Both the position numbers and the translations under genes were made by a program. Of a stretch of DNA of 64,000 nt, positions 1,743 through 60,338 are shown piece by piece; within the stretch, counting starts at the first letter, position 1; the number at the start of each line of letters is the position of its first letter. The DNA comes from Gynuella sunshinyii YC6258. GTDB lineage: Bacteria; Pseudomonadota; Gammaproteobacteria; Pseudomonadales; Natronospirillaceae. Location: NCBI RefSeq assembly GCF_000940805.1, contig NZ_CP007142.1, positions 408,593-472,592 of the forward strand. Direction: 5' to 3'. The notes beneath the pieces were generated by a model. It made no database searches. It saw only the letters and a program-made list of their open reading frames with translations, and had not been told where the DNA came from.

Positions 1743-1984
1743 GGTTTATGGCACATCGTGGCGCGACAAATGGAATATTGATGGGAAGGAAAAGGATTTC
1801 ATCAGGAACACGCATCGATTGCGAGCAGGCTGTTTAAAGAAAGGGCAAGCAGTGGAAAGTAAAACCAGAAAGCGCTACAGCTACCGACAAACTATGGGCC
1901 AAAAGCCAAAGATCCAGCAGTAAAAATAAACGGTAGCAACTTTGCCAATCCCGGCACCACCACCGACTGAAGATACTCTGATCC

Positions 1985-2060: not shown

Positions 2061-2106
2061 GATGGGCAGTGCAGTTGCCTCCAGTTATCGATTTGGCTGA
2101 GTTTAT

Positions 2107-5512: not shown

Positions 5513-7633
5513 ATGAATTTCAATAACCACAAATACTTACAAACAATATTTTGCTGTGCTCTATTGGCGGCATGCAACTCAGAAAGCGATTCAGGCAAAA
5601 CCAATACTGCCGCTGCACACAGCAGCCAGGGCCCTGAAATTCAACTGACCGGCATTGAAAATATACAACTGCTGGCCGGTAGCGATTTCGTTGATCCCGG
5701 CGCCGTTGCAGAAGATGCTGAGGATGGTGATCTGACATCCAGTATTTCTGTTGATTCGAATCTTGATGTTTCCACCACAGGCAAATACGGTATTACCTAT
5801 ACAGTCGTCGATTCTGATGGTCACGAAGCAACTGTCACACGCACCATTATTGTGGCTGCAGAGTTTGACGATAACTATCATGTCAGCTGGGAAAGCAACT
5901 TTAGCCTCCCCAAACAGGATGCAGACGGCTGGTCAATCTTAATACCCTCATCCAACTCGCGACTGATCTATATTTCAACCACGAGCGGTGACGACAATAC
6001 TGCGAAGGTTTACACGCCCAAGGATAGTGTAATCGGCGGAGACTATCGTAATCCTGCCGGTACGGTTTTAGCGTATAAGACAATGGAAGCCGCTTTCGAA
6101 CAATTAAGAGCCGGAAAACCAGACTACCTGCTGTTTAAGCGCGGAGACACCTTTACTAAAACCCCCGGCTTCGATCTTGCACTTAAAGCCGGTCGTTCAG
6201 CCTCCGAACGACAGGTTCTCACCAGTTATGGACCAGCCACAGAGAGACCTGTGATCGATACCGGTACTGGTTGGGGATTAAACTTCAACAATGCTCCCTA
6301 TTCAGCTGCCGTTGGATTATATGTTGTGGCCAGTGGACGTAACCCGGACCAGGACGGTGATGGCAAGGAGGACCGTGACTTTGACTGGAATTCCATAGGT
6401 CAGGCACTGGGTTTTCGTGGTTTGGATATCGTCGGCCACATACTGATCGAAGATTGCTGGTTCGACTGGTATTCAAGCAACTATTTCCAGTCAACCGATG
6501 ATAACTCCGAGGTGATAGACATTATTTTCAGACGGAACCTGGTGACCAACAATTATGCCGCGGTATCCGGTCAGAACACGCAAGGTATGTACTCCGATAA
6601 TGTTTCATCGTTAATTGAAGAAAACATTTTCGACCACAATGGCTGGTATAAACAGGGTACCGGTAGCGATGACAAAGAAGGTCAGGCTACTTACTACAAC
6701 CACAACATTTATTTTGTAGAACCCAGGAACACGATTGTCAGGAACAATCTGTTTTTGCGTTCATCCAGTATTGGTACCAAGTTCACCTCCAACACAACAT
6801 CCGGGGACAATCAGATCAAAGCCTGGAACCTGTTGGTTGATAACAATCTTTATCTTGAAGGCGAAGTTGGTATTGGTCTGAGCGGTAACAAAGATCAGAA
6901 CAACGGACCAAGATTTCAGCAAATCTACGTAACCAATAATGTGCTGATGAATATAGGCCGAACTCAGCCGTCTAAACGGGATCTTGGCTGGGGGATGGAT
7001 CTGGCTGACTGGAAAGGCGGGCTGGTCAACGGCAACATCTTTGCACACTGGGGACAATACAACGCTCAAAACAATAACAACTATGCCATGTATATAACTG
7101 GCGAGATGTCCAATACAGAGATCAGCAACAACATTATCTATGATATCTACAGCAATCAGGTTCTGGTCAACTTCACCGGATATGACGAAATCGTATCATT
7201 TGATTTTCACCACAATGAAATCCAGGGAAAGGATGCGAACGTTCAGCGACCTGGCCGCCTGTTGCAATATTCTGTTAACAAAGGCACTGGTAATCTGGCT
7301 AATAACTACTACTACTCAGAAGTAGAGCAGGATCACTGGTTTTCCGGGCAAGGTTCTGCTTATTTGACTCTGGATCAGTATCGCAGTTACTCCGGTGACA
7401 CGACATCCATGCCTCAGTCTCGCTCTTATGATGAGCCGGAGCGTTCTATTTCAAGTTATTTGTCCTCTCTCGGGTACGCCTCAGGGTTAAATGTAGATAC
7501 GGAAATGGCAGCGTTAATCGAGTTGTTACTGGCACAACAAAAAGGTAACTGGGACACCAACATAAGTGCTACAGCAATCAACAATTATATTCGCGAAGGA
7601 TTCTGCCTCGAGGGTAACTTCAGCTGCCGCTGA
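5513..7633 (+). CDS. Lipoprotein, paralog C, with the same architecture as paralog B. It is more divergent, roughly 45-50% identical.
   Basis: Lipobox LLAACNS. Ig-like domain motif PGAVAEDAEDGDLT. Conserved EDCWFDWYS and FDHNGWYKQGTGS motifs, and a C-terminal KGNWD...AINNY region shared by all three paralogs. Confidence 0.8.
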   Translation: MNFNNHKYLQTIFCCALLAACNSESDSGKTNTAAAHSSQGPEIQLTGIENIQLLAGSDFVDPGAVAEDAEDGDLTSSISVDSNLDVSTTGKYGITYTVVDSDGHEATVTRTIIVAAEFDDNYHVSWESNFSLPKQDADGWSILIPSSNSRLIYISTTSGDDNTAKVYTPKDSVIGGDYRNPAGTVLAYKTMEAAFEQLRAGKPDYLLFKRGDTFTKTPGFDLALKAGRSASERQVLTSYGPATERPVIDTGTGWGLNFNNAPYSAAVGLYVVASGRNPDQDGDGKEDRDFDWNSIGQALGFRGLDIVGHILIEDCWFDWYSSNYFQSTDDNSEVIDIIFRRNLVTNNYAAVSGQNTQGMYSDNVSSLIEENIFDHNGWYKQGTGSDDKEGQATYYNHNIYFVEPRNTIVRNNLFLRSSSIGTKFTSNTTSGDNQIKAWNLLVDNNLYLEGEVGIGLSGNKDQNNGPRFQQIYVTNNVLMNIGRTQPSKRDLGWGMDLADWKGGLVNGNIFAHWGQYNAQNNNNYAMYITGEMSNTEISNNIIYDIYSNQVLVNFTGYDEIVSFDFHHNEIQGKDANVQRPGRLLQYSVNKGTGNLANNYYYSEVEQDHWFSGQGSAYLTLDQYRSYSGDTTSMPQSRSYDEPERSISSYLSSLGYASGLNVDTEMAALIELLLAQQKGNWDTNISATAINNYIREGFCLEGNFSCR

Positions 7634-22535: not shown

Positions 22536-25310
22536 ATGTCCAACACTCTCTATTGTCATTACCCCGATGGCCGGAAGGAAACCATCCGCCACCCTGCCAA
22601 GCCCCTTAATCAGGGCGCTGACGGCGCTATCTTTGCCAGTACTGACCGACGTTATGCGCTCAAGATCTATCACCACCCGGATAAAGATCCCCGACGTGAA
22701 CACAAACTGTGGCAGATGATCGAACACACGCCACCGGCACAGCAAGGTGTTACTTTTGCCTGGCCGCTGGCCATACTCAAAACACATCGGGGTAAATTTG
22801 TCGGCTATCTGATGCCGTTGCTGAACTTCAAACATGAGGTTCAGCTGGAACAGTTGCTTTCGGCCCGGGCTCGTCAGCAGTCCAAACTGCCGGAAAGCTA
22901 CCTGTTTCGACTGAATGCCGCCATTGAACTGGTTCGCTGTGTCGAGGCGCTCCATCGCAGTGGTCATGCCATCATCGATTTCAAACCGGTGAATGTCATG
23001 GTCAACCGTCGGACTGCCGCCATTTCAATCGTCGACTGTGATGGCTTCTTCATTCGTGGTTCACATGATCAGTTTCCCGGTCACCAGTACACCGCCGGGT
23101 ATATTGCACCGGAAGCCCATAACAACAAACTGCCGCCCGATCAACTGGATCAGGCCCAGGACCTGTTTGCTCTGGCCGTTATTGTTTTCCAACTGCTCAA
23201 TAATGGAATTCACCCGTTCCAGGGCGTTCCCAAGCCCGGAACCAAACTGCCCACGGATAACCAGGCCCGCATCAGTGCAGCGCTATATCCCTACGGTGAA
23301 CAACCGCACCCCCGGATAGGTCCATCCCCCTGGAGTCTTCATCGCCACTTTCCTGTCAACCTGCGGGGGGCATTGGAATCATCGCTGATTGGCCCCAAAA
23401 GACATTCGGCGCAGCAATGGCTGCAACTGCTGGAGACCTTGCGCGAACACATCAGTCAGTGTCAAAAAACAGCGGATCACTACTACTGGGGAGAAGAATG
23501 CCCCCATTGCCGCCAAAGCGCCGGACAAACACAACAGTTGGCAGCAACGGCCAAAGCAGCCGCCCAACGAAAACCCCGCAAGCCGACCATCAAAACCCGG
23601 CCGACCAGACACACCGCGGCTCAACCGACCCCTCCGCCAGCACCAACCGCCACGATATCTACCGGTTTTGCCTGGTTCATGATAGTCGCCGTCATACTGG
23701 TGGGTATCATTTTCTTTAACAACGATCACTCTGATGACAGCCGCTACCCAAGTCCGGATGACACCGCCGATGAGGTATTTAAAGACTCCTATTCCGAAAT
23801 GCTGATTCCCGCTTCGGATCTTAACTTTCTCATCCTTGATCCCGCTAAAACGACCACCGAGACGGTCGCTTATACGGACGATGTTGTACGCATGACCTAT
23901 GACGACGGACAACCGGACTCAATATTTTACCAGTTGCCGGAATTCAGCAGCGCCAGTGCAATACCCTACCTCAAGCGCAAGGCAATCAGCCTGAATACCA
24001 CCACCACAATGATCAGCGGCGCTTATGATATTGGTATCCGTGACTTCAACGATCACAACCGGATGCTTGGACAGAATAACAACCCGAAAAACAACATTCT
24101 CATGCTATCGGACTGGCAATATGACGAAGCCACCGCAACGTCTTACACGTATTTGTGTATCCGCCATAACGATGGCAGCGGTATTGGAGGGGCTTTGCCG
24201 ATATGCCAGCACGTGTTACAGAGCAAAACCAACGGATCAGCACGATTTGAATTTACAGAACAGCCGGACACAGATACCTCCACCGCCGCGCAGGCTGGTG
24301 GCTGGCGTTATGACCTGAGCAACAATGGTCGTTACCTGGCCATGGCCAGCAATCGAACGCTGATCGTCTACAAAACCAACAACCCCAAACAGCCACTGGT
24401 TCAGCAATTGTTGCCGGCAGATCAGCTGCAACAATCCATCAACCGCATCATCATCGATGACAGCGGTGAACAAATCTATCTGGCCCTGACAGCACCCGCC
24501 AAACCGAATGAAGCTTTTTCCGGTACCGTCCTGGAACTGCAAAAAACCGGACAGGAGTACCAGATCAGCACCGACTTCTCGACCCTGACAGACCCCAACA
24601 CCCTGTCAGGCATTGACGTTGCCATCAATGCCGATGGCACCATCATGGCCATTGGCGAATACACGGATTCGTATCTGAACACCACCGACTATACCTCTCT
24701 GGGAAGTCCTGTCGATGTCCTGGAAGGCTTTGCCAGAATCAGCCTGTGGCAACGAACCTCTGAAGGCTGGCAGCAGATCTCCACGGTCCACGAACTGAAA
24801 TCCGCGAACGTTACCATCAACGGGGAAGCGTTTTACACCGACAAACCACCCAGAGAACTGATCACCGTTCCGCAGACTATCAGTGCCTACTATTTCAGAG
24901 CATCCTGGTTTGGGGGAGGACAAGGAAGCATTCAATCCCATGCCGCCTTCAATCGTCATTTTCAGCTGAGCCGTGATGGCAAAATACTGATGTCAGGACT
25001 GACTCTAAATGGGCAGAACAACCGCCAGAACAGCACCATGACCGTCAGCACCCATCTCTACGGGATCACCGGATCTGACGTCGCGCTCGCCGCCATTGCG
25101 AAACTTGCAGTCTCCCGGCAGTACGATCAAAACTACCTGCTGGTCGATGCCCGCATGTCGAAAGACGCTGCCACGATCATTTTCAATACCACCACCAATG
25201 TCAGATCTGTCTCCCGGCAAATTCAACAAACCACGCGGTTTGATTTATTTGACTTAAATTCCCTGAGCCAACCGGAATCTGTTACCACTGACGGAGGATC
25301 AACGTATTAA
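22536..25310 (+). CDS. Ser/Thr protein kinase with a zinc-ribbon-like motif, a proline-rich linker, one TM helix and a roughly 540-aa extracytoplasmic C-terminal domain
   Basis: Kinase motifs: RYALKIY (VAIK-like), IIDFKPVNVMV (catalytic loop) and GYIAPEA (APE). Then CPHCRQ, a proline-rich PTPPPAPTA linker, the TM helix FAWFMIVAVILVGIIFF, and a long Ser/Thr/Asn-rich domain. Confidence 0.8.
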   Translation: MSNTLYCHYPDGRKETIRHPAKPLNQGADGAIFASTDRRYALKIYHHPDKDPRREHKLWQMIEHTPPAQQGVTFAWPLAILKTHRGKFVGYLMPLLNFKHEVQLEQLLSARARQQSKLPESYLFRLNAAIELVRCVEALHRSGHAIIDFKPVNVMVNRRTAAISIVDCDGFFIRGSHDQFPGHQYTAGYIAPEAHNNKLPPDQLDQAQDLFALAVIVFQLLNNGIHPFQGVPKPGTKLPTDNQARISAALYPYGEQPHPRIGPSPWSLHRHFPVNLRGALESSLIGPKRHSAQQWLQLLETLREHISQCQKTADHYYWGEECPHCRQSAGQTQQLAATAKAAAQRKPRKPTIKTRPTRHTAAQPTPPPAPTATISTGFAWFMIVAVILVGIIFFNNDHSDDSRYPSPDDTADEVFKDSYSEMLIPASDLNFLILDPAKTTTETVAYTDDVVRMTYDDGQPDSIFYQLPEFSSASAIPYLKRKAISLNTTTTMISGAYDIGIRDFNDHNRMLGQNNNPKNNILMLSDWQYDEATATSYTYLCIRHNDGSGIGGALPICQHVLQSKTNGSARFEFTEQPDTDTSTAAQAGGWRYDLSNNGRYLAMASNRTLIVYKTNNPKQPLVQQLLPADQLQQSINRIIIDDSGEQIYLALTAPAKPNEAFSGTVLELQKTGQEYQISTDFSTLTDPNTLSGIDVAINADGTIMAIGEYTDSYLNTTDYTSLGSPVDVLEGFARISLWQRTSEGWQQISTVHELKSANVTINGEAFYTDKPPRELITVPQTISAYYFRASWFGGGQGSIQSHAAFNRHFQLSRDGKILMSGLTLNGQNNRQNSTMTVSTHLYGITGSDVALAAIAKLAVSRQYDQNYLLVDARMSKDAATIIFNTTTNVRSVSRQIQQTTRFDLFDLNSLSQPESVTTDGGSTY

Positions 25311-46817: not shown

Positions 46818-47283
46818 ATTCTTCCAGTTGTTCCAGAACCCCGGCCATTCGTTGGTCGCGGTTCTGTACCAGCAACAGCTTCATTCGCTGAAAGGAGACC
46901 TTCACGGCCTCCTCAAGGGTTTGCGCATCGCCATTTATCTGCGCCCCCAACAACCTCTCACAATGTTGCAATAACAACCGCAGATACTCACTAACCAGAG
47001 ACCAGTGTCCCAATACCGACAGACAAATCACCAGATGATGACATGAGTACAACAGGTTATTGATCATTTCAGACGCGCCGACCACCTCATGCTGATGCTG
47101 CACAGCCAGTACGGCAATTTCGTAAGCTGCTCCCAGCTTGCGGCAGGCCAGTTCCCAACTTTGCGCCTCCATGGCCATCAGCCCGGCCAGCTTCAGGTGC
47201 TCAAACTGCTGATAGGCCTGAAGCGGATCCTGTGCGACCAATAACTGATGATGACTACAGATGAATCGCATAACTTGCCTCAT
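46780..47283 (-). CDS. Hypothetical helical protein
   Basis: Clean 167-aa ORF that is convergent with and overlaps the 3' end of the SAHH-like gene. Confidence 0.4.
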   Translation of the reverse strand: MRQVMRFICSHHQLLVAQDPLQAYQQFEHLKLAGLMAMEAQSWELACRKLGAAYEIAVLAVQHQHEVVGASEMINNLLYSCHHLVICLSVLGHWSLVSEYLRLLLQHCERLLGAQINGDAQTLEEAVKVSFQRMKLLLVQNRDQRMAGVLEQLEEFIVMPGCRVLLH

Positions 47284-47719
47284 GCTTTAAATGATAATGA
47301 TTATCATTTATAAACAAACGGGCCACATAATACAAGCAGGATTTCACGGCAACTGACTTGAATCACAAACAGCCTGACCCACACAGAAAAGGAATCAACC
47401 TGATGCAGACATGACTTGAACCGATACCGCTAATGAGTAAATTCTGTTACAAAATCAACCGGCTCGCCCGACTCTGAATCTGATAGTTAATACAACGTTA
47501 TGCACTGAATCATCCATACGCGATTGACGCCGTGTGACCGGATGTAACGCAAACACTGTGATCCGGATTTCATTTTGGCAATCAATATCGGCCAAAAGTG
47601 ATCCGAATCAGCAAAAAAGCAACATTAAACTGTATTCGAAGTTAAGATATACCTGCATGATCTAAAGACAGATCAGTAATCCAGTTTCCAAAAACAATTC
47701 CAAGCAGGATTATCAAAAC

Positions 47720-50209
47720 ATGAATTCAAAAACCCTAAAAGCCATTCTTGCGGCCGGATTTTTGCTTGCCGCAAATGGCATGACAGCAACCACCGCATAT
47801 GCAGCTTCTGACATGACTGATACCTCAGAAAAACAGACTCTTTCCAACGCAGACAGTCCAACCGGTATCTGGCAATGCCCGGATTCCGGTTTGTACTTCT
47901 GTGACGATTTCGCCACCGGCAGCACCAATAACTGGAACCTGCTGCCGCAGACCGAAAACAGCATGATACCCGATGGCAGTTTTGACCTCGTTAATGATGC
48001 AGACAACTATGTCCTGCGCTATACCGCCGATAAATCCGGTGGCGTTATTGCGCTGGTTAAACCATCAGCTTTATCCATGCTGACAACGGCAGACTATTAC
48101 GTTGAGGCGAAAATCAGACCGCGTTACAACTCGACAGCTGCCAACAAGCAACTTTATTTGCTTGGTCGCTATCAGGACGGTAACAACTGGTATGCCGGAG
48201 CGATGAACATTCAAAATTCCGTCGGCAGCACCCAGGTGGAAATTGCCAAAATGGTCAACGGCGAACTGACGCGTATGCAGCGAGTCAAAACACCGATTGA
48301 ACAGGGTGCAAAAGATGCCCTGGACGGACAATGGTACTACCTGCGTCTGGTACTGAAAGGTGACACCCTGACGGTTTATCTCGATGGCGATCAGATTGCC
48401 TCCACTACCGACACGAGTTTCACAGATACCGGCATCATCGGTCTCTGGACATCCAATAAATCATTCGAAATCGATGATGTCCGAGTCGGTAATGCCGACG
48501 ACCTTCCTGCATCTATCGTGTTGTCTCCCAGAGATACGGAATACAGCGCTGAAGTTGGAGATACGCCCAAGGTCGTTGAAGTCAGTACCCGTACAGAGAC
48601 CGGAGAAAATGATACCTTTACCGTCACCTCAAGCGATTCGAATGTGATTGCCATCAGCACGGCAGGTAATCAGGTTACCCTGACACCCGTGGGATCAGGC
48701 ACCGCCACGGTCACATTTATCAGCGGCTCAAATCTGGTTCGAAAAATCAGCGCCACCATTGCACCACAATTTGAAATGCCAACCGCAGTCTATAATTTCT
48801 GCAATGAACTCACACCCGCCTCAGGCGAATTCAATACCTATGAAGATACCCAGCTCAAAATCAGATTTGATTCTGAGGTAACACTGGGAGAGGGATCCAT
48901 TCGCATTTTCAGAACCAGCGATGATGTCATGGTGGACAAAATCAGTCTGATCAATGAATCAGACAACATAGGCTACAACCCGGTACGTACCATTAAAACC
49001 AATCAGGTCAGAATCGATGGCAACATTGTCCGTATCACCCCACACGCCAATACTCTGGAGCACGGTGTCAACTACTATATCGCCATAGCTAAAGAAGCAT
49101 TCACCGGTGCAACATTGGCAGGACAAGTATTTGAGGGCATTGGAAAAAACAGTGGCTGGACCTTTACCACCAGAATCAACGGACCAGATACCAACAAGAC
49201 CACGCTGGTGGTTAACGATAATGGTCATCATGCTGACTTCCGGTCAGTACAAGGCGCACTCAACTTTATCATGCAGAACGTGGCAGCAGATACACCTGCT
49301 ACGGTGTATATCAAAAATGGCATATATGAAGAACCGCTGTACCTTTACGGCAAAAATAACATTACCTTGAAAGGTGAAAACCGGCGTAGAACCATCATTC
49401 GTTACACCATCAATGAGAGCATGAACTCGGGTACCGCAGGACGACCATTATTCCTGATAGAACAGGCAGATATGGTCAGACTGGACAACCTGACACTGAA
49501 AAACACCACACTGATCGGGGAAGGGCACCAGGCTGAAACGCTATTCTTTAACAGCCCGGACGGTCGACTGATTGCCACCAACGCAGACTTTTTCAGCGAA
49601 CAGGACACTCTGAACCTTAAGGGCTGGACCTGGTTCTATAACACATTGGTTGCCGGAAATGTTGATTTTATCTGGGGCTACAGCAAAGTCTCCTTGTTCG
49701 AAAACAGCGAAATCCGCACGTTGGGAGATTCACGGGGTAATGGCAGCGGCGGATACGTCCTTCAGGCCCGGGTGGAAAATGAAACCGACAAAGGCTTTGT
49801 CTTCCTCAACTCAAAAATCACTCGCGGTAACGGTCCGAACGGCGACCCGGTCCTGGACAATACTACCTACCTGGCCCGAAGCGGCGGTTGCAGTGGCTGT
49901 TACGACAATATCGTGTTCGTCAATACTTACATGGACGCCCATATCAAACCCGTCGGCTGGCTAAACGATCCATTACCCACACCACAAATAGCCAATGAAA
50001 ATGCGGGTTGGCGGGAATACAACACAATGGATCTTAACGGCCAGGAACAAGACCTTTCAGAAAGACTCGAAACCTTATCTTACGAAATGAACGAAGAGGA
50101 AGTTCTGAATGGCTACAGCACGAGAGAACAGATATTTTCCGCCTATAACAACGGCGAAGGATGGGAGCCAATGAAAGACATATACAATCATTGGCCGAGG
50201 TTTAAATAA
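47720..50209 (+). CDS. Secreted multidomain carbohydrate esterase family 8 (pectin methylesterase-like) protein with N-terminal lectin/Ig-like (Big_2) domains
   Basis: Signal peptide MNSKTLKAILAAGFLLAANGMTATTAYA. Big_2-like segment. C-terminal CE8 motifs FFSEQDTL and GNVDFIWG. Confidence 0.7.
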   Translation: MNSKTLKAILAAGFLLAANGMTATTAYAASDMTDTSEKQTLSNADSPTGIWQCPDSGLYFCDDFATGSTNNWNLLPQTENSMIPDGSFDLVNDADNYVLRYTADKSGGVIALVKPSALSMLTTADYYVEAKIRPRYNSTAANKQLYLLGRYQDGNNWYAGAMNIQNSVGSTQVEIAKMVNGELTRMQRVKTPIEQGAKDALDGQWYYLRLVLKGDTLTVYLDGDQIASTTDTSFTDTGIIGLWTSNKSFEIDDVRVGNADDLPASIVLSPRDTEYSAEVGDTPKVVEVSTRTETGENDTFTVTSSDSNVIAISTAGNQVTLTPVGSGTATVTFISGSNLVRKISATIAPQFEMPTAVYNFCNELTPASGEFNTYEDTQLKIRFDSEVTLGEGSIRIFRTSDDVMVDKISLINESDNIGYNPVRTIKTNQVRIDGNIVRITPHANTLEHGVNYYIAIAKEAFTGATLAGQVFEGIGKNSGWTFTTRINGPDTNKTTLVVNDNGHHADFRSVQGALNFIMQNVAADTPATVYIKNGIYEEPLYLYGKNNITLKGENRRRTIIRYTINESMNSGTAGRPLFLIEQADMVRLDNLTLKNTTLIGEGHQAETLFFNSPDGRLIATNADFFSEQDTLNLKGWTWFYNTLVAGNVDFIWGYSKVSLFENSEIRTLGDSRGNGSGGYVLQARVENETDKGFVFLNSKITRGNGPNGDPVLDNTTYLARSGGCSGCYDNIVFVNTYMDAHIKPVGWLNDPLPTPQIANENAGWREYNTMDLNGQEQDLSERLETLSYEMNEEEVLNGYSTREQIFSAYNNGEGWEPMKDIYNHWPRFK

Positions 50210-50318
50210 ATAGATTAAGGGATTAAGCGTGTTTGATGCAGGGATGCATCGCTTTGAAGCATTCAATAGTATGACAGTCCGAAGGCGTCATATATGTCCT
50301 TTTTATATCTCCCTCTGG

Positions 50319-50651
50319 TTAGAAATTCAAAAACTTTAATGCAGCCAAAGCGATACAAATCACTATCGATGCAGCACTTAATCTATTCAGTATATTTAGA
50401 CTTTTTGCAATAGACTTCACTTTTTCATCTTCAAACTTTAAATAAGGCTTTACATTGAAGTATCTAATACGATTAAGGTGTAACCTAAAGGCATTATCAT
50501 CATACAGTCCAAATTCTATCAATTGGCTATCATCCAGCTTTTCAATAGCCAAAAAGAACTCGCGTTGCAATGAGTTATATTTATTGACAAGAAAAATCGA
50601 TATTACTAAAAACATTAAGAAAAATATGCTTATCATACCTATCACCGTCAA
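50319..50651 (-). CDS. Small membrane protein (two TM helices) in the AT-rich island
   Basis: 110-aa ORF with low-GC codon usage. Confidence 0.4.
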   Translation of the reverse strand: MTVIGMISIFFLMFLVISIFLVNKYNSLQREFFLAIEKLDDSQLIEFGLYDDNAFRLHLNRIRYFNVKPYLKFEDEKVKSIAKSLNILNRLSAASIVICIALAALKFLNF

Positions 50652-50654
50652 AAC

Positions 50655-51110
50655 TTCTGATCAAAGCCAACCGCAAGCATAGTCCCACTGCTACCAAATA
50701 CTAATCCAACACCGCCTTTGAAATTCGCGCCGCCAGAGCCAAGAGTACCACTAACTTTTGTACCAAAGATTCCTCTAGCAGGAGCGGTCCACGAAAATTT
50801 ATCGGTAATGTTTAGATCTGACGGACCTCTCTCTCCGATTGGAAAGTTATAATCAACTGTTAACGATAAGCTGCGCCTTTGATTAACCCCGATCCAGCAA
50901 AGAACTTTGCATCACCAGCCCCATTAATAGAAAAATCAACCCTATAACCAGCATTGTTTTTTCTAAGAGCTAAGGAGCCTGTAAAGGAATAACGATCGAG
51001 CTCGTCAAGAGAATCTACAAACCTAAATAGATCCTCTCTCACGCCTCCATCTAGCATTCGATTCCAGAAAAAGCCTGCAAATGAGTCTTCAGATACCTGA
51101 GGCAAACTAG
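50655..51110 (-). pseudogene. Disrupted outer-membrane beta-barrel (OmpA/OmpW-like porin family) gene, frameshifted
   Basis: Two frames give ...FAGSGLIKGAAYR and ...GTLGSGGANFKGGVGLVFGSSGTMLAVGFDQKF*, which is Gly-rich with a C-terminal Phe typical of OMPs. No intact start or signal peptide. Confidence 0.5.
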
Positions 51111-51141
51111 GCCAGCTCCACCTGCTCTTTTGTACATTAAA

Positions 51142-51195
51142 GATTCAAGTTTACGGGTGTATTTTTTATTTTCATTCTTTTTATTTTCAAATTTA
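51142..51195. repeat. Island repeat copy 1 (degenerate): GATTCAAGTTTACGGGTGTATTTTTTATTTTCATTCTTTTTATTTTC
   Basis: One of five copies of the GAATTCAAGTTTATGGATGTCCTTTTTAT... family. Confidence 0.6.
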
Positions 51196-51312
51196 TGAAT
51201 TCAAATAATGGGTGCCCTTTTTATTTCTTATAGCACAAGATTGGCCAAGTTATTTACAGAGATATGGGTTCTAACCGTTGGTAATGGTTTAAGATCTCCT
51301 TAAGTAGCCACA

Positions 51313-51360
51313 ATTCAAGTTTTTGGGTGTTATTTTTGTTTTCCATTCTCATCACCCAAA
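51313..51360. repeat. Island repeat copy 2 (degenerate)
   Basis: AATTCAAGTTTTTGGGTGTTATTTTTGTTTTCCATTCTC. Confidence 0.55.
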
Positions 51361-51484
51361 GATATCCACGACTTGCATCTTTTTATAGCTGCTAACAGGG
51401 TAGCTATCCAATATGAACTTCTCTAAATCATTCGACAGTCTCTGAAAATATGGTGTAGCACTTGTGCTGGTACCATCATGGATT

Positions 51485-51510
51485 AACAAGTTTATGGATG
51501 TCCTATTTAT
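51485..51510. repeat. Island repeat copy 3 (core only), 11 nt beyond the 3' end of lipoprotein gene 51521..51928
   Basis: AACAAGTTTATGGATGTCCTATTTAT. Confidence 0.6.
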
Positions 51511-51520
51511 TCACCAATCC

Positions 51521-51928
51521 CTATTCCTTAACAAAACATAAATGTAACTCTGTTTGAAAACAAAGATGTATATTTGGCTCCTTGTTCTTTGACGTTTTTA
51601 CGGCCAAAGTAAACCAATCACCACGAGAGCTTGATATGCCTTTCATAGCCCTAAACTTAAAATTGTAAAAAACAACATCAATTTCAATCACAGAGTCAGA
51701 TGGCGTTTCAACAAACTTCCAAGCGCCTTTTTCTTCTTTAACTTCATTTTCTTCTCGAAATTTGTGTATATATGTACCATCGGCATTTATTTCCAACTTG
51801 TCGGTATCATCCGCGTAATGGGCCAAATAGCTACCATACAATTCTTCAGCATTAAAATACTCTCGTTTAGATCCACATCCTGTGCAAATGGCCATGATCA
51901 AAACAAAAAGGGAAAGGTGAAATTTCAT
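51521..51928 (-). CDS. Lipoprotein (candidate immunity-type protein)
   Basis: Lipobox MKFHLSLFVLIMAICTGCGS. 135 aa. Abuts the upstream 225-aa ORF with no gap. Confidence 0.55.
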   Translation of the reverse strand: MKFHLSLFVLIMAICTGCGSKREYFNAEELYGSYLAHYADDTDKLEINADGTYIHKFREENEVKEEKGAWKFVETPSDSVIEIDVVFYNFKFRAMKGISSSRGDWFTLAVKTSKNKEPNIHLCFQTELHLCFVKE

Positions 51929-52606
51929 TTAATACTGCTCAGTTATAAAATAAGTTTGCGATACTGTTGACATTGGCGACATAGTGTAACCAGTTCTATC
52001 ATACGAAATTTCACCAAATATTCTTCCGGTTAGCGAAGATAAGCTGGTGTTATTGTCTAGCGCATACATTAACGTGCGATTTGGCCCTCCAACAATATCC
52101 GTTACCGTGAAGCTCCCGACATATGCCCCCGTAGGGCTTTGCCAAGCGATTTTGAATCCTTCGGCAATTGATATCGTCTTCCCAAAGTTGGTTGCATGAA
52201 TTCCACTCCAGTCATTAGATGCAGATAACTGCGAGCCATATGTTTTGAAAAATAAGTCTCTGACGCGTTGAAACTCCGGGGTTAAGCTTAGATTGTGAGA
52301 TTGAATAGAGTCTGGACCAAACACCAGTTCGGAAGGACCAACTCCGAGAAAAAATCCCGCGACAATCATTCCAGCGGTCGCGACTTCACCAACTTGATCT
52401 CCAATCCCAAAGCTCTTTTGTGCATTATCCACCACCACTACGATAGTCCCCTGTTCTGCCAACTCTTCCTGAGCACGTATATACATATATCCATTGGGCA
52501 CCACACTGGTAGTTCCATAAGGCGAATAGTACTGATTTTGCACTCCCAGCGCTGCATCGGCGCACTGGATGTCATTTTTATCTTTTTTTATTTTCTTTTG
52601 AAACAA
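51929..52606 (-). CDS. Hypothetical 225-aa protein without a signal peptide (candidate effector/toxin-like partner of the downstream lipoprotein)
   Basis: Clean ORF with low-GC usage and no recognisable domain. Confidence 0.4.
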   Translation of the reverse strand: MFQKKIKKDKNDIQCADAALGVQNQYYSPYGTTSVVPNGYMYIRAQEELAEQGTIVVVVDNAQKSFGIGDQVGEVATAGMIVAGFFLGVGPSELVFGPDSIQSHNLSLTPEFQRVRDLFFKTYGSQLSASNDWSGIHATNFGKTISIAEGFKIAWQSPTGAYVGSFTVTDIVGGPNRTLMYALDNNTSLSSLTGRIFGEISYDRTGYTMSPMSTVSQTYFITEQY

Positions 52607-52625
52607 GTATCCAACTACTAAATCT

Positions 52626-52874
52626 CTATAGGCATTCTTTTTGTTTTTTTAATTTTGAATATACAATACTAAATATTACGCTTTCGAACACAACATATAC
52701 ACAAGCTATAGCGGATCCTCCCCTTAAATCAGCACCTCCCACCAAACCAAGACAGAAAACCTGAAGAAGAAAAATAACCGACTCTTTTTTCACATCACCC
52801 AATGAAAATATCTTAATAAACCGAAAGCATGTACCGCCAAAAACTATTACTACCACAATTATTGTTTCCGTCAT
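52626..52874 (-). CDS. Small membrane protein (82 aa)
   Basis: Two TM helices. Overlaps the upstream small ORF by 4 nt. Confidence 0.35.
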   Translation of the reverse strand: MTETIIVVVIVFGGTCFRFIKIFSLGDVKKESVIFLLQVFCLGLVGGADLRGGSAIACVYVVFESVIFSIVYSKLKKQKECL

Positions 52875-53051
52875 AACCCTACACCCAGCATCGCGTTAGT
52901 TACAATAGTATTTGCAGACGCACCTAGTTGAAATAGGTCATATCCAACTATAATATTACCCTGAGTTAATATTGAGATTTTTGTAACCTCAGACCCTAAA
53001 GTCAGAGGTTTTTTTACTAGCGATATTAATTGCACCAGATATCTTTTCTGG

Positions 53052-53108
53052 GAATTCAAGTTTATGGATGTCCTTTTTATTTTTCTATTCTCTCTTTTTA
53101 TTCTTCTC
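53052..53108. repeat. Island repeat copy 4 (full length), 14 nt beyond the 3' end of lipoprotein gene 53122..53547
   Basis: GAATTCAAGTTTATGGATGTCCTTTTTATTTTTCTATTCTCTCTTTTTATTCTTC. Confidence 0.65.
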
Positions 53109-53121
53109 TATTTCGAATCGC

Positions 53122-53547
53122 CTAGCTTTCTATCTTATATTTCTTATGTAACTGAGAGATATTCCGTGGATCGATTTCGATAAGGACATCTTTAGTATCA
53201 AACCAAAGACTTAGGTATCTATCTTTAGATTGATTAAAATTTAATGGATTATTTTGCTGATATATATACAACAATCTTCTTCCCACGACGCTATTGTCTT
53301 CTTTTCTCGTCATAATAGTGTCATATGATGGTTCACCCAACATAGCTATAACAACAGCATATGAATCACCTATTTCTAATTTTTGGATTTTTTCGATATC
53401 TAACGGTAAGTTCTGTCTTTCTTCAATATTCAAATCACTATGCTTGGTATCATTACCATCTTTATTACATGCAGTAAAACCAAATAAGGTTATTGATATT
53501 GCTATACAAGTATTAATTACAATATTTAAACGCATATTCCTTAACAT
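53122..53547 (-). CDS. Lipoprotein (candidate immunity-type protein)
   Basis: Lipobox ISITLFGFTACNKDG. 141 aa. Confidence 0.55.
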   Translation of the reverse strand: MLRNMRLNIVINTCIAISITLFGFTACNKDGNDTKHSDLNIEERQNLPLDIEKIQKLEIGDSYAVVIAMLGEPSYDTIMTRKEDNSVVGRRLLYIYQQNNPLNFNQSKDRYLSLWFDTKDVLIEIDPRNISQLHKKYKIES

Positions 53548-53579
53548 CTTGTGGGCTCCAGATAAAATGATATTTTGAG

Positions 53580-53917
53580 GGCTTTCCTCCTACATGAAGA
53601 GCACCATACGCAGTAGTTGAACAATTAGAGTCGATAGTGGACCAGTTTTTATCTTATTTCCATTTATCCCACCACGATTTTATTTTTTCAGTATCTGGGT
53701 TAGTGACCAATATTTCATGATCAGGTATTTTTTGCCCTTCCAATCTTACGTCATCCTCAAAACTTTGATTGGCCATTTCTTCTGCTTCAAAGACTTGGCC
53801 TCCATAAGATCCGAATACTTTATATTTTTCTATAGGCCTTTGCTCAGGGCCAGGGCAGAAACTAATATGAGTTCCATTATTGTTTCCCTTGAGATTTTTG
53901 CTATTTTAATTTACTAA
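53580..53917 (-). pseudogene. Start-less C-terminal ORF fragment (...GTHISFCPGPEQRPIEKYKVFGSYGGQVFEAEEMANQSFEDDVRLEGQKIPDHEILVTNPDTEKIKSWWDKWK*) immediately upstream of the lipoprotein gene
   Basis: Open frame of about 100 codons with no plausible start other than an internal Met. Resembles an orphan C-terminal module. Confidence 0.35.
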
Positions 53918-54307
53918 GTTTCGGCTAAATACCAGCAATAGTGCAGAGAGCAGACAAACCAGACAGGATAACTTAAAAAGCAGCCCATACCGCGTATAAT
54001 TATTACACAGCGCATCTAACGTCGCATCACTAAGAGACTTATAAGATTTTTTCTTTAGAAAGTCGGAAAAAGCTTTTTGCCTACTTAGCTCGTAAACTTC
54101 AAATTTGAGAGAGACACCTAAATTTTTGCTAATATCAGGGTATGATTCAAGAAGTCTTTTTTTATATCTATTTTGAACACCATAGTCCCGACTAGAGAGA
54201 TAACTACGACTGCTACGGATAAGACGAATATTCACTCTACCAGCATATCTACTCTCCAGAATTGAATAATTGATAGCTGAATCCAACCGACCTTGCAACT
54301 GAACCAC
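53906..54307 (-). CDS. Hypothetical 133-aa protein with a C-terminal TM helix. Possibly the frameshifted continuation of the upstream Gly-rich fragment at 54310-54470.
   Basis: The same DNA upstream reads ...GLAGFKAAGSIGLNGLSDQVGIGVVKGG in another frame. Confidence 0.3.
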   Translation of the reverse strand: MVQLQGRLDSAINYSILESRYAGRVNIRLIRSSRSYLSSRDYGVQNRYKKRLLESYPDISKNLGVSLKFEVYELSRQKAFSDFLKKKSYKSLSDATLDALCNNYTRYGLLFKLSCLVCLLSALLLVFSRNLVN

Positions 54308-54561
54308 CTTTTACCACTCCGATACCGACTTGGTCACTTAAGCCGTTTAAACCGATGGACCCCGCTGCTTTGAATCCTGCCAACCCATACACTTGCGATG
54401 TAATTGATGTTTTACCCAAGAAATCGAGACCTCCAATTATTTCCAGCGAATGGCTGCGCTTGCAAGTTTAAATCCGCCGTTAGTGAAAAGCTTCTACCTG
54501 TCACGTAACCTGTTTCTTCGGCTCCAGGAATTTCAATTCATATATTTTCCTGGACAGCCAG

Positions 54562-54590
54562 GAATTCAAGTTTATGGATGTCCTTTTTAT
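54562..54590. repeat. Island repeat copy 5 (core)
   Basis: GAATTCAAGTTTATGGATGTCCTTTTTAT. Confidence 0.65.
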
Positions 54591-54750
54591 ATTTTTTATA
54601 CTTCCGCGAATGCGCGGGATAATTATTAATATTAAAATTTTTTATGCCCTTCTCAAAGGATCTTTTTTATTCTGGTAATAGACTTATTCAATATGGTAGA
54701 AAATGAAATATACTACGATTGGTTTTCAGTCAACGAGAAAAGGATAAGTT

Positions 54751-55077
54751 ATGAAGAGGGTTTTACTTTTATTGATATCAATCTTGTCGGTTAATACTTT
54801 GGCATATACGGAATGTAGCCGTTCTCCAAACAAAGTCTGGCTAAACCTTACGGGTAATTCAGTCTGGATTTGCTTCGATACAGGAAATTGTGTCTATAAA
54901 ACAGTTTCTGGTAACTTTACTGAAGCCCATCTGGACAGGATGTATGCAACTGGTATGGCAGCAATATCAGCGGGGAAAAATCTGATTATCAGATACCCAG
55001 AAGACAATGCAAACTGCAGTGACCTGACCAGCACTCCGAGCAGAGATGATATTCAAGGGTTGTGGTTCACCAAATAA
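54751..55077 (+). CDS. Small secreted cysteine-containing protein (108 aa)
   Basis: Sec signal MKRVLLLLISILSVNTLAYT; four Cys residues in the mature part. Confidence 0.45.
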   Translation: MKRVLLLLISILSVNTLAYTECSRSPNKVWLNLTGNSVWICFDTGNCVYKTVSGNFTEAHLDRMYATGMAAISAGKNLIIRYPEDNANCSDLTSTPSRDDIQGLWFTK

Positions 55078-55245
55078 AGGTTTGCAGAAACACACGCGAC
55101 AGATAGCCTTGTCGTTGGTAACAACAGTAGCTATAACAGTACCTAAAAATACAACTTACCTGTACGACGCGATGAAATAAATAGCCGATTATATAGCTAG
55201 AAGAATTCGTATCTCTTGTATAAGTGTCTCGGTCAGTCAATAGCA

Positions 55246-55929
55246 TCAGAGTGAAGAATGTGGTTTATCTGTTGTATCTTCACTCTGATGATGTCTCACA
55301 GGCACTTCCTCCCAACCGCTGATCATGGCTTTCATAAACTGTCCAACAGTTGCTCCAGTGGTTATCAAATACAGGTGGGCCACGAGAAAGGTCAGTATCA
55401 GAAATGCAGCAGCGGTATGAATCAAGGCAACGATTTCGAGGCTTAACCCGGCGTTGATCAGTTCGAATCTTGCCCATTCATTGTAAAACAGATAAAGCAG
55501 TCCGCTGATCCATATCGCTGGAATAATCAGTATTTTTAGCAGCAAATAGGCTAGTCGTTGCAGTGGGTTGTGTTTGGCCGCAGTACTGGGATGAAACGGA
55601 TGCGGTTCTCCGCTAAAAATGCCTCTGGAGTAGTACATCAGTTGCTCCCATAATCCTTTACGGGTAGGCAGGTAGTGTTTGTATTCTCCCGTGGTCAGAT
55701 GCCAGAAGATGGTGAACACCCACAGTACCACCAGAGACCAGGCCGACATTTCATGAAGTTGTGTCGCCCGGTCAAATCCGAACAGCGTGTAGTTACCATG
55801 AATTTCAAATCCCGTCAGCGCCATAAATATGATCAATACCGCCTGAGCCCAATGCCAGAATCGTTCATACGCTTTAAATAGCAGTATCCGTTCAGTTGTC
55901 TGGTTCATTCCGTTTTCTCCTCCAGGCAA
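55246..55929 (-). CDS. Membrane b-type cytochrome (Ni/Fe-hydrogenase/formate-dehydrogenase cytochrome b family, PF01292-like)
   Basis: RFWHWAQAVLIIFMALTGFEIH plus four TM helices carrying conserved His. Last gene of the cytochrome operon. Confidence 0.7.
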   Translation of the reverse strand: MPGGENGMNQTTERILLFKAYERFWHWAQAVLIIFMALTGFEIHGNYTLFGFDRATQLHEMSAWSLVVLWVFTIFWHLTTGEYKHYLPTRKGLWEQLMYYSRGIFSGEPHPFHPSTAAKHNPLQRLAYLLLKILIIPAIWISGLLYLFYNEWARFELINAGLSLEIVALIHTAAAFLILTFLVAHLYLITTGATVGQFMKAMISGWEEVPVRHHQSEDTTDKPHSSL

Positions 55930-57505: not shown

Positions 57506-58609
57506 TTAAGGCCGATCGAGTTTTGGAACTGTCACTTTCTGACCAAGATCCATCACGGAATCATGCATCAGTTGCAGCACGTATGATGCGTTGTGCATAT
57601 AAGCGCCGTGATCTTTAAGCGCAAACTGATAGTTATAAGCCGCTTTGGCCAGTCTTGGAGTCCAGTGGCTATATCCGTTCTTGCGGTTGGCCTCATCTTC
57701 ATCAACCTTGCCATTGGCATTCAGGTCATTGAAGAAATAAGGGTAGGTATGTTCGTCATAGGCAATTCCGCTGCCGACCACATCTGTCGAGTAACGTGTC
57801 ATAACAGTAAGCAGTAATTCTTCCAGCCCTTGCACTTCGTACTTGATGCCCTCTTCAGTATTACCATCACCGTCGAAATCACCTTTGAGATCACGAATGT
57901 TGGCAAAGTCATCTTTAGTGACTACCGATTCATGGCAATCCTGACAACCCCGGGGATCGATTTTCAGGGTATGACTGTTATGGCAATCGTTGCATTGAGT
58001 GGACACTTCGTCGTGAAAGTAGAAGCCAGCATACTTCTGGCCGGAATACTGATAGCCACCGTGAGCTTCAGCACCAAAACGAGTCGCGCCAGCGGCACTG
58101 TAATGGATATTCAGGAATTTCAACTTGTCGGAGGAGGCGTCATCGGCCACAGCCGCTTCCTGTACCATTTTATCAACGGCGATACCGGAAGACCGACCCT
58201 GATGGCAGTCCATACATCGGGCGTCTGGCTCAAAACGTTCCACCTCGATACCCGATGGAAACAGCACCGCTTCTTTATGCAGCGTAGCAGTATTGTGGCA
58301 AGCGACACAGGCAACACCTTCCTCTATCGGTGCATCTTTTTCAACCGATCCTGCGGCACTGCCATCCACTCCGAGGAAATCAAGATGTCCTGTGGTGGAA
58401 TGGCATCCGGCACAATCTTTGGAGACTTTACCTTCATCATTCCAATGAGCAAAAGGCTCTGCCTCAAAGTCGGCATGGGGGGAACTCTGCCAGTCTTCCA
58501 GGAAAGGAATCTGGGGCAGCTTATGCTCTGCAGTTCGGGCAAAAAAGGATACAGCAACCAGAACAGTGAATACGGCAGTCAGGCATAAGGAACGTTTAGT
58601 ATGCATCAT
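57506..58609 (-). CDS. Periplasmic multiheme c-type cytochrome (about five CxxCH motifs)
   Basis: Signal peptide, then CAGCH, CVACH, CMDCH, CNDCH and CQDCH motifs. Confidence 0.8.
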   Translation of the reverse strand: MMHTKRSLCLTAVFTVLVAVSFFARTAEHKLPQIPFLEDWQSSPHADFEAEPFAHWNDEGKVSKDCAGCHSTTGHLDFLGVDGSAAGSVEKDAPIEEGVACVACHNTATLHKEAVLFPSGIEVERFEPDARCMDCHQGRSSGIAVDKMVQEAAVADDASSDKLKFLNIHYSAAGATRFGAEAHGGYQYSGQKYAGFYFHDEVSTQCNDCHNSHTLKIDPRGCQDCHESVVTKDDFANIRDLKGDFDGDGNTEEGIKYEVQGLEELLLTVMTRYSTDVVGSGIAYDEHTYPYFFNDLNANGKVDEDEANRKNGYSHWTPRLAKAAYNYQFALKDHGAYMHNASYVLQLMHDSVMDLGQKVTVPKLDRP

Positions 58610-59225
58610 ACAACAGTCCTCATTTCGTTATTGTAATAATCTCCGGCGACTACTCGATCAGGGGAAACCGGCACTGCTTATATTTAGTCTATTTATACCT
58701 ACAATGCCACTCAGGAAGCACATTGTTTTCTGCGGCAGATCAATGAGTTTGAAAATAAAGAGTTGTCATTGTTTTGGCCAGTATAAAAATGTATCCGTCT
58801 TTTGGGAGCCGTCTATTGTTTCAGCAGAATCAACTCAGATCTTCAGATCGATCGATAACTTAAAAGCATAGTCTGATGTTAATCATATCCCTGTCTGTCA
58901 TCTGATCGTCATCTGCAAAATAGTTGTTATCGTATTTACATATGTAGTCTGAAAACGGCTCAGACAACAGGTTTGAGAAGTGACACAAATCAGGTTGTGA
59001 CCGTTTCAAGCCTGAATTTTCCAGTCTGATCCAATTGCCTGTTTATGACCTATATGACACCAGTAACGACATTTGCTGTTACTTTTGTTATGGGAGTTTC
59101 ACTTTACAACGACACCGCTGTTACTATCCTGTCATATTTTTGCAAGATAATCTTCCTGGACATTCCGTATTTGGAACAGAACACCTTATCTGGTCCTGAT
59201 GATACTCATAATAAGAGGAGTCACC

Positions 59226-60338
59226 ATGAAAGTATCTCGACGCCAATTTGTGAAAGGTTCTCTTGCGGCCGGTATCGCCGCAACTTCTCCGTTTTACCTA
59301 AACCGTGCGCTGGCCGCATCCAAGGAACTACGTATTTATGCCTGGGCCGGTTATATCACTGATGAAATGCTCAAGGACTTCAAAGCCAAGACCGGTATCA
59401 ATGCCACGTTCACGCCTTATGGCACGAATGATGAGTTGATGAATTCTCTGCGCGCCACCGATGGAACGGGTTTTGACATTATCATGCCAACCGTTGACCG
59501 GGTTCCCGGTTACCTGGATTTCAATCTGATTCAACCACTGGATACCACCCGTATTAACTGGAACGGCTGTCTGGACAGCGCCATGAGCGGCTCGGAAGTC
59601 GGTGGTGTCATTGATGGCAAACGCTATTTTGCCCCATCGGATTGGGGTACTGAGGCCATTTGCTACAACACAGAAGAAGCCAGAGTTGACCCTAAAAACC
59701 TGAGTTATGGTGATTTGTGGAAACCTGAACACAATGGTGGCGTAACGGTTCGCGGCCATTCTGCACTTGTAGGTATCGGTCTTTGGCTTGAACAGCAGGG
59801 AAAATTACCGTTTCCATTGCTGGACTCTTATAAAAACGAAAAAGCCATGCGCGCCAACTTTGACGTCATTCTGAAAGCTGCAGTGGAACACAAGGGCATG
59901 ATTGCGCAATTCTGGTCAACCGAAAATGAAGCCCAGGGCGCATTTCGCACCAATGGCGCCATCATCGGCCAGACCTGGGACAGCACCGCGTTCAAACTGC
60001 AATCCGAAGGCGAACCCATCGCCTACGGGGCCCCCAAAGAAGGCGCACTGGCATGGATGGAAGGCTTTGTGATTCCTAAAAATGCCAATAATGTTGATGC
60101 AGTCTATGAATTCATAAACTGGTATTACACGCCCGAAGCCGGTGCCATGTTCGTGAAATCCACCGGATACAACTCAACATCAAAAGGTGCCGAGGCACTG
60201 TTACCAGAATCCACGAAAAAATTCTTTAGCAGCTCTTATTCTGAAAAAGATCTCGCCAATCTTTGGTGGTGGCCAATCCAGGAGCCCTGGTACGTTGCTT
60301 TACGTAACGAGTATCAGGATCGCTTTCTGTCTGCCTGA
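59226..60338 (+). CDS. ABC transporter substrate-binding protein, PotD/PotF family, with a Tat signal
   Basis: SRRQFVKGSLAAGIAATSPFYLNRALA twin-arginine leader. AGGAG RBS. SBP family-1 fold. Confidence 0.75.
   Translation: MKVSRRQFVKGSLAAGIAATSPFYLNRALAASKELRIYAWAGYITDEMLKDFKAKTGINATFTPYGTNDELMNSLRATDGTGFDIIMPTVDRVPGYLDFNLIQPLDTTRINWNGCLDSAMSGSEVGGVIDGKRYFAPSDWGTEAICYNTEEARVDPKNLSYGDLWKPEHNGGVTVRGHSALVGIGLWLEQQGKLPFPLLDSYKNEKAMRANFDVILKAAVEHKGMIAQFWSTENEAQGAFRTNGAIIGQTWDSTAFKLQSEGEPIAYGAPKEGALAWMEGFVIPKNANNVDAVYEFINWYYTPEAGAMFVKSTGYNSTSKGAEALLPESTKKFFSSSYSEKDLANLWWWPIQEPWYVALRNEYQDRFLSA

Follow-up and report, generated by a model that had tools for sequence, protein, structure and literature searches.

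Why should a 5-kb block of AT-rich DNA, filled with short genes, lie between a pectinesterase gene and a cytochrome operon in Gynuella sunshinyii YC6258? The block occupies positions 50210-55245 of the window, the 64-kb stretch of DNA analysed here. Its edges are exact: it fills all the DNA between the stop of a CE8 pectinesterase gene (50209) and that of a cytochrome b561 gene (55246), which is the last gene of a multihaem cytochrome operon. The original prediction described it as an island of distinct composition and codon usage that had likely been acquired horizontally. We consider it highly probable that this block represents the variable 3' tail of a polymorphic-toxin locus of the Rhs type, left without its delivery gene and made up of orphan toxin-tip/immunity cassettes in varied states of decay.

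The distinct composition is confirmed. The guanine plus cytosine (GC) content of the block is 37.45%, compared with 50.4% in the rest of the window (z = -3.9), and every other 5-kb segment of the 64 kb has a higher GC content (minimum 42.3%). In 500-nucleotide (nt) steps, GC was 0.31-0.40 between 50000 and 55250, with a single bump of 0.456 over a 225-amino-acid (aa) open reading frame (ORF), and 0.47-0.55 in the flanks on both sides. The correlation of tetranucleotide usage with the rest of the window was 0.48 for the block and 0.82-0.95 elsewhere. GC at third codon positions was 0.25-0.42 in the ORFs of the block and 0.46-0.57 in the flanking genes. As predicted, the ORFs are short and lie on the minus strand, with the exception of a 108-aa protein with a signal peptide at the right edge (54751..55077, plus strand). 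The absence of mobility genes and of a flanking tRNA was also correctly noted: none of the neighbouring genes matched an integrase or transposase in a Pfam scan, and the sole tRNA of the window is at 31077.

The 225-aa ORF (51929..52606, minus strand, TTG start) is an orphan Rhs-type C-terminal toxin, as predicted from its relatives. Comparison of the small proteins with Rhs and contact-dependent inhibition (CDI) effector/immunity families had been suggested at the outset, and it was the right check. A word-indexed protein search with this ORF recovered nothing but the query. Relatives came to light when 1.84 billion representatives were searched exhaustively with HMMER: 23 other proteins (124-1370 aa) match residues ~64-225. 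The match uses the C-terminal end in 21 of the 23, the exceptions being P0014 (probably a fragment) and P0018. The long relatives carry RHS_repeat or RHS domains, and one, the distant P0016, has DUF637. In ten relatives a (D/N)PxG core-end motif precedes the domain by 70-200 residues, and the upstream part of the family profile matches Rhs/TcC/teneurin chains in PDB, including Tse5, YenC2 and TccC3. The 225-aa ORF, whose domain (~64-225) is complete and which has no Rhs body or DPxGL motif of its own, is homologous to the variable domain located behind the PxxxxDPxGL core end of full-length Rhs proteins. Its closest relative is P0002 (57% identity, E = 4e-52) on metagenomic contig L036. The 5' end of this contig reads in frame ...GRFMSVDPFIQAPSNTQSINPYSYIMNNPLAGTDPTGY upstream of P0002 (...NPLAGTDPTGY), which is an Rhs core end.

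The 225-aa ORF is followed by an intact gene for a 135-aa lipoprotein (51521..51928, minus strand), whose start abuts the toxin stop codon. A homologous lipoprotein gene comes after P0002 in L036 (28% identity, E = 2e-24), and lipoproteins of the same family come after 225-type toxins in L046 (E = 8e-14) and L045 (E = 8e-11). In one of the latter two loci the lipoprotein sits behind a 1370-aa Rhs protein. The lipoprotein family therefore follows the 225-type toxin in four independent loci including the window, and the 135-aa protein is a candidate for cognate immunity. Judged by these homologies, positions 51521-52606 hold a predicted complete Rhs-type toxin domain with its family-specific lipoprotein partner, an arrangement typical of a polymorphic-toxin tip with its cognate immunity protein. 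Because the partner is a lipoprotein, the periplasm or the envelope is the probable site of action of the toxin. The AlphaFold2 model of the ORF (predicted local distance difference test, pLDDT, 70.6) gave only weak structural matches, and tblastn of the toxin against plasmids gave no match. One identity considered for the ORF was a colicin M-like (lipid II-cleaving) domain, which is marked by the colicin M catalytic fold and an Asp/Tyr/His/Arg signature. About 100 nt past the immunity gene in L036 (Joint Genome Institute, JGI, Ga0394932_035761, 1375-1462) we also observed two tandem copies of AAAAGGGGTCAGAGTCAATTTAAATGAACTATAC with a 45-nt period.

A second module lies at the left end of the block. 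Its first gene, here called the E-type toxin, is a full-length predicted toxin pseudogene (50651..51105, minus strand, TTG start at 51105), and its second gene (50319..50651, minus strand) encodes an intact 110-aa protein with two hydrophobic helices (transmembrane-like residues 3-21 and 87-109), the candidate immunity partner. The first gene had been taken for a frameshifted outer-membrane protein gene. The frameshift is real. When the overlapping frames of 50651-51144 were joined, they gave 159 aa, 64% identical to P0067 and 62% identical to P0068, which are intact metagenomic proteins of 173 and 168 aa. The intact homologues read through GLIKGRS(L/V)SLT and the window copy is broken between GLIKG and RSLSL, so that the window copy has a 1-nt deletion near 50875. 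The outer-membrane identity of 50651-51105 is ruled out: neither the window copy nor the intact homologues have a signal peptide, the gene has no Pfam or NCBIfam match to outer-membrane protein families, and its context is that of a toxin with its immunity gene. The AlphaFold model (pLDDT 41) is unusable. For P0067 and P0068 it calls two N-terminal helices and then eight strands of 10-13 residues, which would suit a small beta-barrel, at a pLDDT too low to use.

P0068 is encoded on contigs L039-L042, which carry a metagenomic Rhs orphan array. In L039 the 3' end of an Rhs gene (...NRYSYVVNNPLNATDPSGF...), with its own tip and lipoprotein, is followed by an E-type toxin without a start codon, then by a membrane protein of 104 aa, which shares 34% identity (E = 7e-22) with the 110-aa ORF of the window, and then by more orphans that retain pieces of the pre-toxin region of the main gene. 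In L047 the E-type toxin, the other intact homologue, with a TTG start conserved between L047 and the window copy, forms an isolated two-gene unit with a 100-aa counterpart of the 110-aa protein. A two-helix membrane protein follows the E-type toxin in all three loci (window, L039 and L047). The link of this toxin to Rhs C-termini is given by the L039 context; no fused full-length example was found. Taken together, 50319-51105 is a frameshifted putative toxin gene with an intact two-helix membrane partner, and the same pair is present in a metagenomic Rhs orphan array. The toxin probably acts on the membrane, since its partner is an integral membrane protein. A second scan of metagenomes with the E-type profile found again only L039-type contigs, tblastn against plasmids gave no match, and a PDB search with the profile found nothing.

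The block also holds a second copy of the E-type toxin, 5'-truncated and frameshifted (54252..54537, minus strand). Two collinear fragments, each in a different frame, make it up, and hmmsearch with the E-type profile matched them in order at profile positions 82-99 (E = 0.005) and 112-159 (E = 0.0016). This relation between cassette A and the E-type toxin is the only paralogy among the ORFs of the block. Start-less ORF fragments, which the original prediction had also listed, are thus present at 54252-54537 and again at 53516-53905.

The neighbouring genome points in the same direction. A genome scan with the 535-aa cytochrome of the flank as query found one close relative, a Gynuella sp. metagenome-assembled genome (MAG) on contig L001 (88% aa identity). 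Nucleotide synteny with it (86% identity) extends from 63854 of the window down to 55292 and breaks off within the cytochrome b gene, ~46 nt short of its 3' end. Past this point the MAG carries an ORF of >1778 codons with SpvB, FG-GAP and RHS_repeat domains, oriented as the cytochrome operon, which runs off the end of the contig. Synteny is genuinely broken at the island's right edge, and an Rhs-family toxin gene is located there in the neighbouring genome. This rhs gene has the same strand and position as the cassettes of the block. A comparison with related genomes had been proposed, and the block is indeed absent from the syntenic position in this MAG; the comparison covers the right edge of the block in one related genome, as the contig ends inside the rhs gene. 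Across the break (55246-55292 versus L001 12208-12242), the last ~15 residues of cytochrome b561 differ between the two Gynuella genomes (...VPVRHHQSEDTTDKPHSSL versus ...VPVRQKRPNKTEKSS). When the Rhs fragment of the MAG was used as query for rhs genes of G. sunshinyii, the best match was 29% identical and none came from Gynuella.

How could such a tail have formed? Toxin/immunity modules would arrive serially from other strains, with the C-terminus of the Rhs protein displaced by homology-facilitated illegitimate recombination, and each arrival would push the older modules downstream. The rhs body would then have been lost, and the remaining useful function would be protection, the tail serving as a store of immunity. 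Intact immunity lipoproteins in the periplasm and immunity proteins in the inner membrane could neutralise the matching Rhs toxins of competitors, such as Rhs-armed Gynuella relatives, and toxin parts no longer used would decay. All of the candidate immunity ORFs are intact, and the toxins comprise a frameshifted gene, a fragmentary copy and a domain without its body. Intact partner genes beside decayed toxins fit selection for immunity only.

The same account bears on the composition of the block. In L045 and L039 the segments of C-terminal toxin plus immunity gene lie 10-14 GC points below the Rhs bodies. Low GC is intrinsic to Rhs tips, and therefore AT-richness alone is not evidence of a recent transfer of the whole block. 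Module-wise horizontal exchange is likely, because the closest relatives of the two identifiable modules (57-64% aa identity) are in Rhs loci of unrelated metagenomic contigs. The prediction of horizontal acquisition stands to this extent, that the composition is foreign and the modules have relatives in unrelated contigs; the idea of one recent unit does not follow from composition. Two features tie the block to known orphan arrays: its toxin tip also occurs in full-length Rhs proteins, and the immunity gene downstream co-varies with the toxin. A main rhs gene upstream in the same orientation is missing, no Rhs body having been found anywhere in the window, and no core fragment has been kept; hence our description of the block as an orphan array that is bereft of its body and decaying.

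Several points weigh against this reading. No fragment of the Rhs core (DPxGL) is left in the island, unlike classical orphans: a profile built from 21 core ends found none in the six-frame translation of the island, and the same profile finds the core fragment of L039. The contig of the MAG covers only part of its rhs gene, and loss of the body in G. sunshinyii and gain in the MAG are indistinguishable. Relatives were detected for only two of the ~five cassettes, the others being assigned by architecture, and the predicted toxin folds gave no significant structural match. Given its own conserved TTG start and the free-standing pair in L047, the E-type toxin may be independent of any Rhs carrier. 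The toxin and immunity roles throughout are predictions from sequence.

The original prediction had also noticed a dispersed repeat family, and this family may bear on how the cassettes were joined. The repeat, X, is 33 nt long (consensus GAAAATAAAAAGGACAYCCATAAACTTGAATTC) and is present in seven copies, all on the minus strand and, within the window, only in the island. Its 20-nt core has three matches at <=3 mismatches, where 0.01 were expected. From right to left the copies are A (54564-54596), with a partial second copy of its 3' half at 54524-54541; B (53054-53086), ~35 nt past the stop of a 141-aa lipoprotein gene; C (51484-51515), starting ~5 nt past the stop of the 135-aa lipoprotein gene; D (51313-51345); G (51197-51232); E (51143-51175); and F (50294-50311), which has the 5' half only (ATAAAAAGGACAT), lies ~7 nt past the stop of the 110-aa gene and is the last element before the CE8 flank. 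Copies are thus found 5-35 nt past the stops of three candidate immunity genes. A and B share 30 identical nt in unrelated surroundings, and conservation ends at the same 3' base in five copies. The duplicated 3' half of copy A (54524-54541 versus 54558-54575, 34 nt apart) is 78% identical, with a spacing like that of the copy pairs in L039 described below.

We found no dyad symmetry in X, and a meaning as an attC, dif or lox-like site was rejected on this ground. A double-glycine leader or a conserved start region was rejected as well, as neither the frames nor the downstream sequences are conserved. X resembled no promoter or terminator consensus beyond background and matched nothing in Rfam. 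The 20-nt core had no exact match in JGI metagenome contigs or in the first 42 fetched loci.

A comparable repeat is present in the array of L039 (JGI Ga0193960_1004750, 1546-4720; also L040-L044), which has 12 same-strand copies of 26 nt, AACCAATAGGACAGGCACT followed by TATATA, GAAGAAG or other sequence. Copies are located at every cassette boundary, 0-12 nt past the stops of candidate immunity genes, and two unrelated candidate immunity genes use the TAG of the repeat as their stop codon. The repeat abuts pieces of Rhs that are cut off at varying points, one from the core (GFTGHEMLDEVGIIH) and others from the pre-toxin region, and at 2410-2603 and 4546-4664 its copies bracket an Rhs core fragment of 100-190 nt. 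Copy pairs are spaced 28-34 nt. The core common to X and the L039 repeat is AGGACA[TG][CG]CA, and copy C of the window reads AATAGGACATCCA.

Do these repeats mark a dedicated mechanism? X could be the joint of such a mechanism, either a site-specific recombination site or the fixed end of a mobile cassette, with the recombinase encoded elsewhere, by analogy with integron attC sites or the repeat-bounded immunity arrays of Bacteroidales. The confinement of seven same-strand copies to the island, the identity of A and B in unrelated surroundings, the common end base, the positions just past candidate immunity stops and the half copy at the terminal position F would all suit a defined joint, as would the independent array of L039 with the same core at immunity stops. 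However, there is no recombinase gene nearby, X has neither dyad symmetry nor attC structure, and the 5' end of one and the same E-type cassette differs between the window and L039, which is evidence against precise cassette excision. The shared core is also short and possibly due to chance, with a probability that we estimate at roughly 1e-2 to 1e-3. Serial illegitimate recombination already explains short conserved stretches in arrays (PMC5361080), one of which is contained in the V. cholerae immunity arrays formed by homology-facilitated illegitimate recombination (PMC5361080). The ordinary reading remains that each incoming module would have brought along a short conserved 'end of module' stretch, and that the repeats would be passive scars of illegitimate recombination. 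We regard a dedicated joint as unlikely. It is an equally tentative proposal that X and the L039 repeat together mark a defined recombination joint for the capture and stacking of Rhs toxin/immunity cassettes, that is, an integron-like or fixed-end system in Gammaproteobacteria.

The modules might instead be independent pairs, bacteriocin-like or of the toxin-antitoxin type, that in this lineage never formed part of an Rhs protein, their position at the rhs site being a coincidence. The TTG start of the E-type toxin and its isolated unit in L047 speak for this, and so do the possible TTG start of the 225-aa ORF and the lack of a remaining Rhs core fragment in the island. However, the 225-aa toxin domain is elsewhere fused behind Rhs cores, the E-type pair is also found within the Rhs array of L039, and the cassettes share strand and position with the rhs gene of the sister MAG. 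We consider this explanation quite improbable.

It is highly improbable that the block is what it was first taken for, a generic island of miscellaneous cargo acquired horizontally as one 5-kb unit from an AT-rich donor. Its clearly deviant composition and its absence from the syntenic position in the sister MAG are what such an island would show, but low GC is typical of Rhs tips, and no integrase, transposase, tRNA or att-like flanks were found. Moreover, the cargo is not miscellaneous but consists of toxin/immunity modules tied to Rhs loci, and these modules differ in GC (0.30-0.44) and in their state of decay, which suggests different times of arrival.

Short one-strand ORFs separated by a repeat in AT-rich DNA would suit an integrase-less integron cassette array (CALIN), a prophage remnant or an anti-phage defence islet. 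These readings can practically be dismissed, since there are no attC-like R''/R' pairs (complementary RYYYAAC...GTTRRRY; 0 in the island compared with 0.12 in shuffles) and no significant PADLOC, PHROG or Rfam match. Scans of all ORFs of the island against Pfam, NCBIfam, PADLOC and PHROGs gave nothing significant. PADLOC had no match at E <= 0.01 (PDC-M13B was listed for the 133-aa ORF at E = 0.058, which is not significant), and the only two PHROG matches, both of the 141-aa lipoprotein, were not significant either (E = 0.038 and 0.073). A scan for promoters and terminators showed no excess over shuffles.

Returning to the Rhs tail as the favoured reading, the remaining minus-strand ORFs of the block can be placed in it by position and architecture. 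The 141-, 133- and 82-aa ORFs are putative orphan immunity genes whose toxins have been truncated. The intact 141-aa lipoprotein (53122..53547; lipobox ...LFGFTAC) is a candidate orphan immunity protein. It matched Pfam BamE at E = 0.0023, below the cutoff, and had no match in PDB or by tblastn against plasmids. With the 135-aa protein it makes two lipoproteins, where several had been counted before. The start-less fragments of 83 and 46 aa at 53516..53905, in two frames, may be remnants of its toxin and have no family match. The 133-aa ORF (53906..54307), with a C-terminal hydrophobic helix, would be the immunity or membrane protein of cassette A, and the intact 82-aa protein (52626..52874), with three hydrophobic segments, the membrane immunity protein of a lost or decayed toxin. 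The 62-aa ORF directly after repeat copy B (52871..53059) is a putative toxin remnant, and the 45-aa ORF between copies C and D (51352..51489) is probably a remnant of a cassette. No homologue was found for any of the last four or for the 141-aa lipoprotein. The 108-aa protein at the right edge, which has four cysteines in addition to its signal peptide, lies within the non-syntenic low-GC block and is absent from L001; it had no Pfam, PHROG or PDB match and no detectable relative.

Some features elsewhere in the window were also observed. A second stretch of lower GC (0.42-0.45) is located at 1-7600, with a slightly reduced tetranucleotide correlation (0.82-0.88). A pair of paralogues of ~700 aa (2896-5076 and 5513-7633), with a Bact_surface_Ig-like domain, is encoded there, as is a 559-aa ORF (63-1742) that has no Pfam match. 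Short GC dips (0.38-0.39) were found in intergenic DNA upstream of the CE8 gene (47250-47750) and upstream of the cytochrome operon (58500-59250). The latter is ancestral promoter-region DNA outside the island, because it was also seen in the sister MAG (L001 8250-9000). The 924-aa ORF at 22536-25310, with only a weak Pkinase match (E = 2.5e-8, residues 104-232), may be a large Ser/Thr kinase-like protein.

How does the block compare with known systems? The end of the Rhs core of Tse5/RhsP1 from Pseudomonas aeruginosa (PDB 8cp6), whose C-terminal toxin acts on membranes, resembles the region upstream of the 225-type domain in full-length relatives. Tse5 also offers a parallel to the E-type pair, as a glycine-rich Rhs tip countered by a small membrane protein, but this is an idea only: the E-type toxin has no sequence or fold similarity to the Tse5 C-terminus, with a model too poor for use. 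The block differs from the orphans of CDI systems (CdiA-CT/CdiI) in that neither the 225-aa ORF nor its relatives have a VENN-type motif and the window has no large exoprotein gene.

The rAID arrays of Bacteroidales, which Ross et al. are said to have described in 2019, reportedly consist of orphan immunity genes with conserved intergenic repeats and protect against the toxins of competitors. They reportedly adjoin a tyrosine recombinase and hold mostly immunity genes only. The island, in contrast, has no recombinase nearby and has kept toxin remnants.

In the T6SS (type VI secretion system) of V. cholerae, sequential displacement of effector/immunity modules leaves arrays of immunity genes (PMC5361080). 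As in the island, older modules lie downstream, immunity genes are kept and effectors are truncated (PMC5361080). A short conserved stretch that is normally located downstream of effectors recurs in these arrays, and an integrase-free mechanism has been proposed for them (PMC5361080). The island differs in being of the Rhs type, with a Sec-type SpvB/FG-GAP/RHS neighbour rather than a VgrG-linked T6SS, and in having lost the upstream anchor gene.

Another parallel is that of the orphan rhs-CT/rhsI 'silent cassettes' located downstream of rhs genes, which are fused elsewhere to full-length Rhs proteins in other bacteria (PMC3150448). Such modules are known in the Enterobacteriaceae from Dickeya dadantii, Yersinia pseudotuberculosis and Salmonella Typhimurium (PMC3150448, PMC3967940). 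Like them, the island has toxin C-termini without a body, with a small cognate immunity gene behind each and all in one orientation, and a GC content below that of the body and the genome. Unlike them, it has no main rhs gene within the 64 kb and no DPxGL core fragment, and hence its cassettes could not be reloaded onto a body by homologous recombination. Its toxin and immunity families also lie outside Pfam, NCBIfam and PDB, and its joints carry the 33-nt repeat.

On this account an anomalous island in a natural-product-rich marine rhizobacterium is explained as DNA of interbacterial conflict, and it clearly illustrates how an array can keep its immunity genes after the delivery gene is gone. 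It adds two uncharacterised families, an Rhs tip with a lipoprotein antidote (~two dozen sequence clusters) and a glycine-rich toxin of ~170 aa with a two-helix membrane antidote. The repeat at cassette joints, found in two independent arrays, provides a concrete handle on the long-open question of how orphan cassettes are stacked. Orphan rhs-CT cassettes and immunity-retaining arrays are already known, and what is new here are the toxin families and the repeat at the cassette joints.

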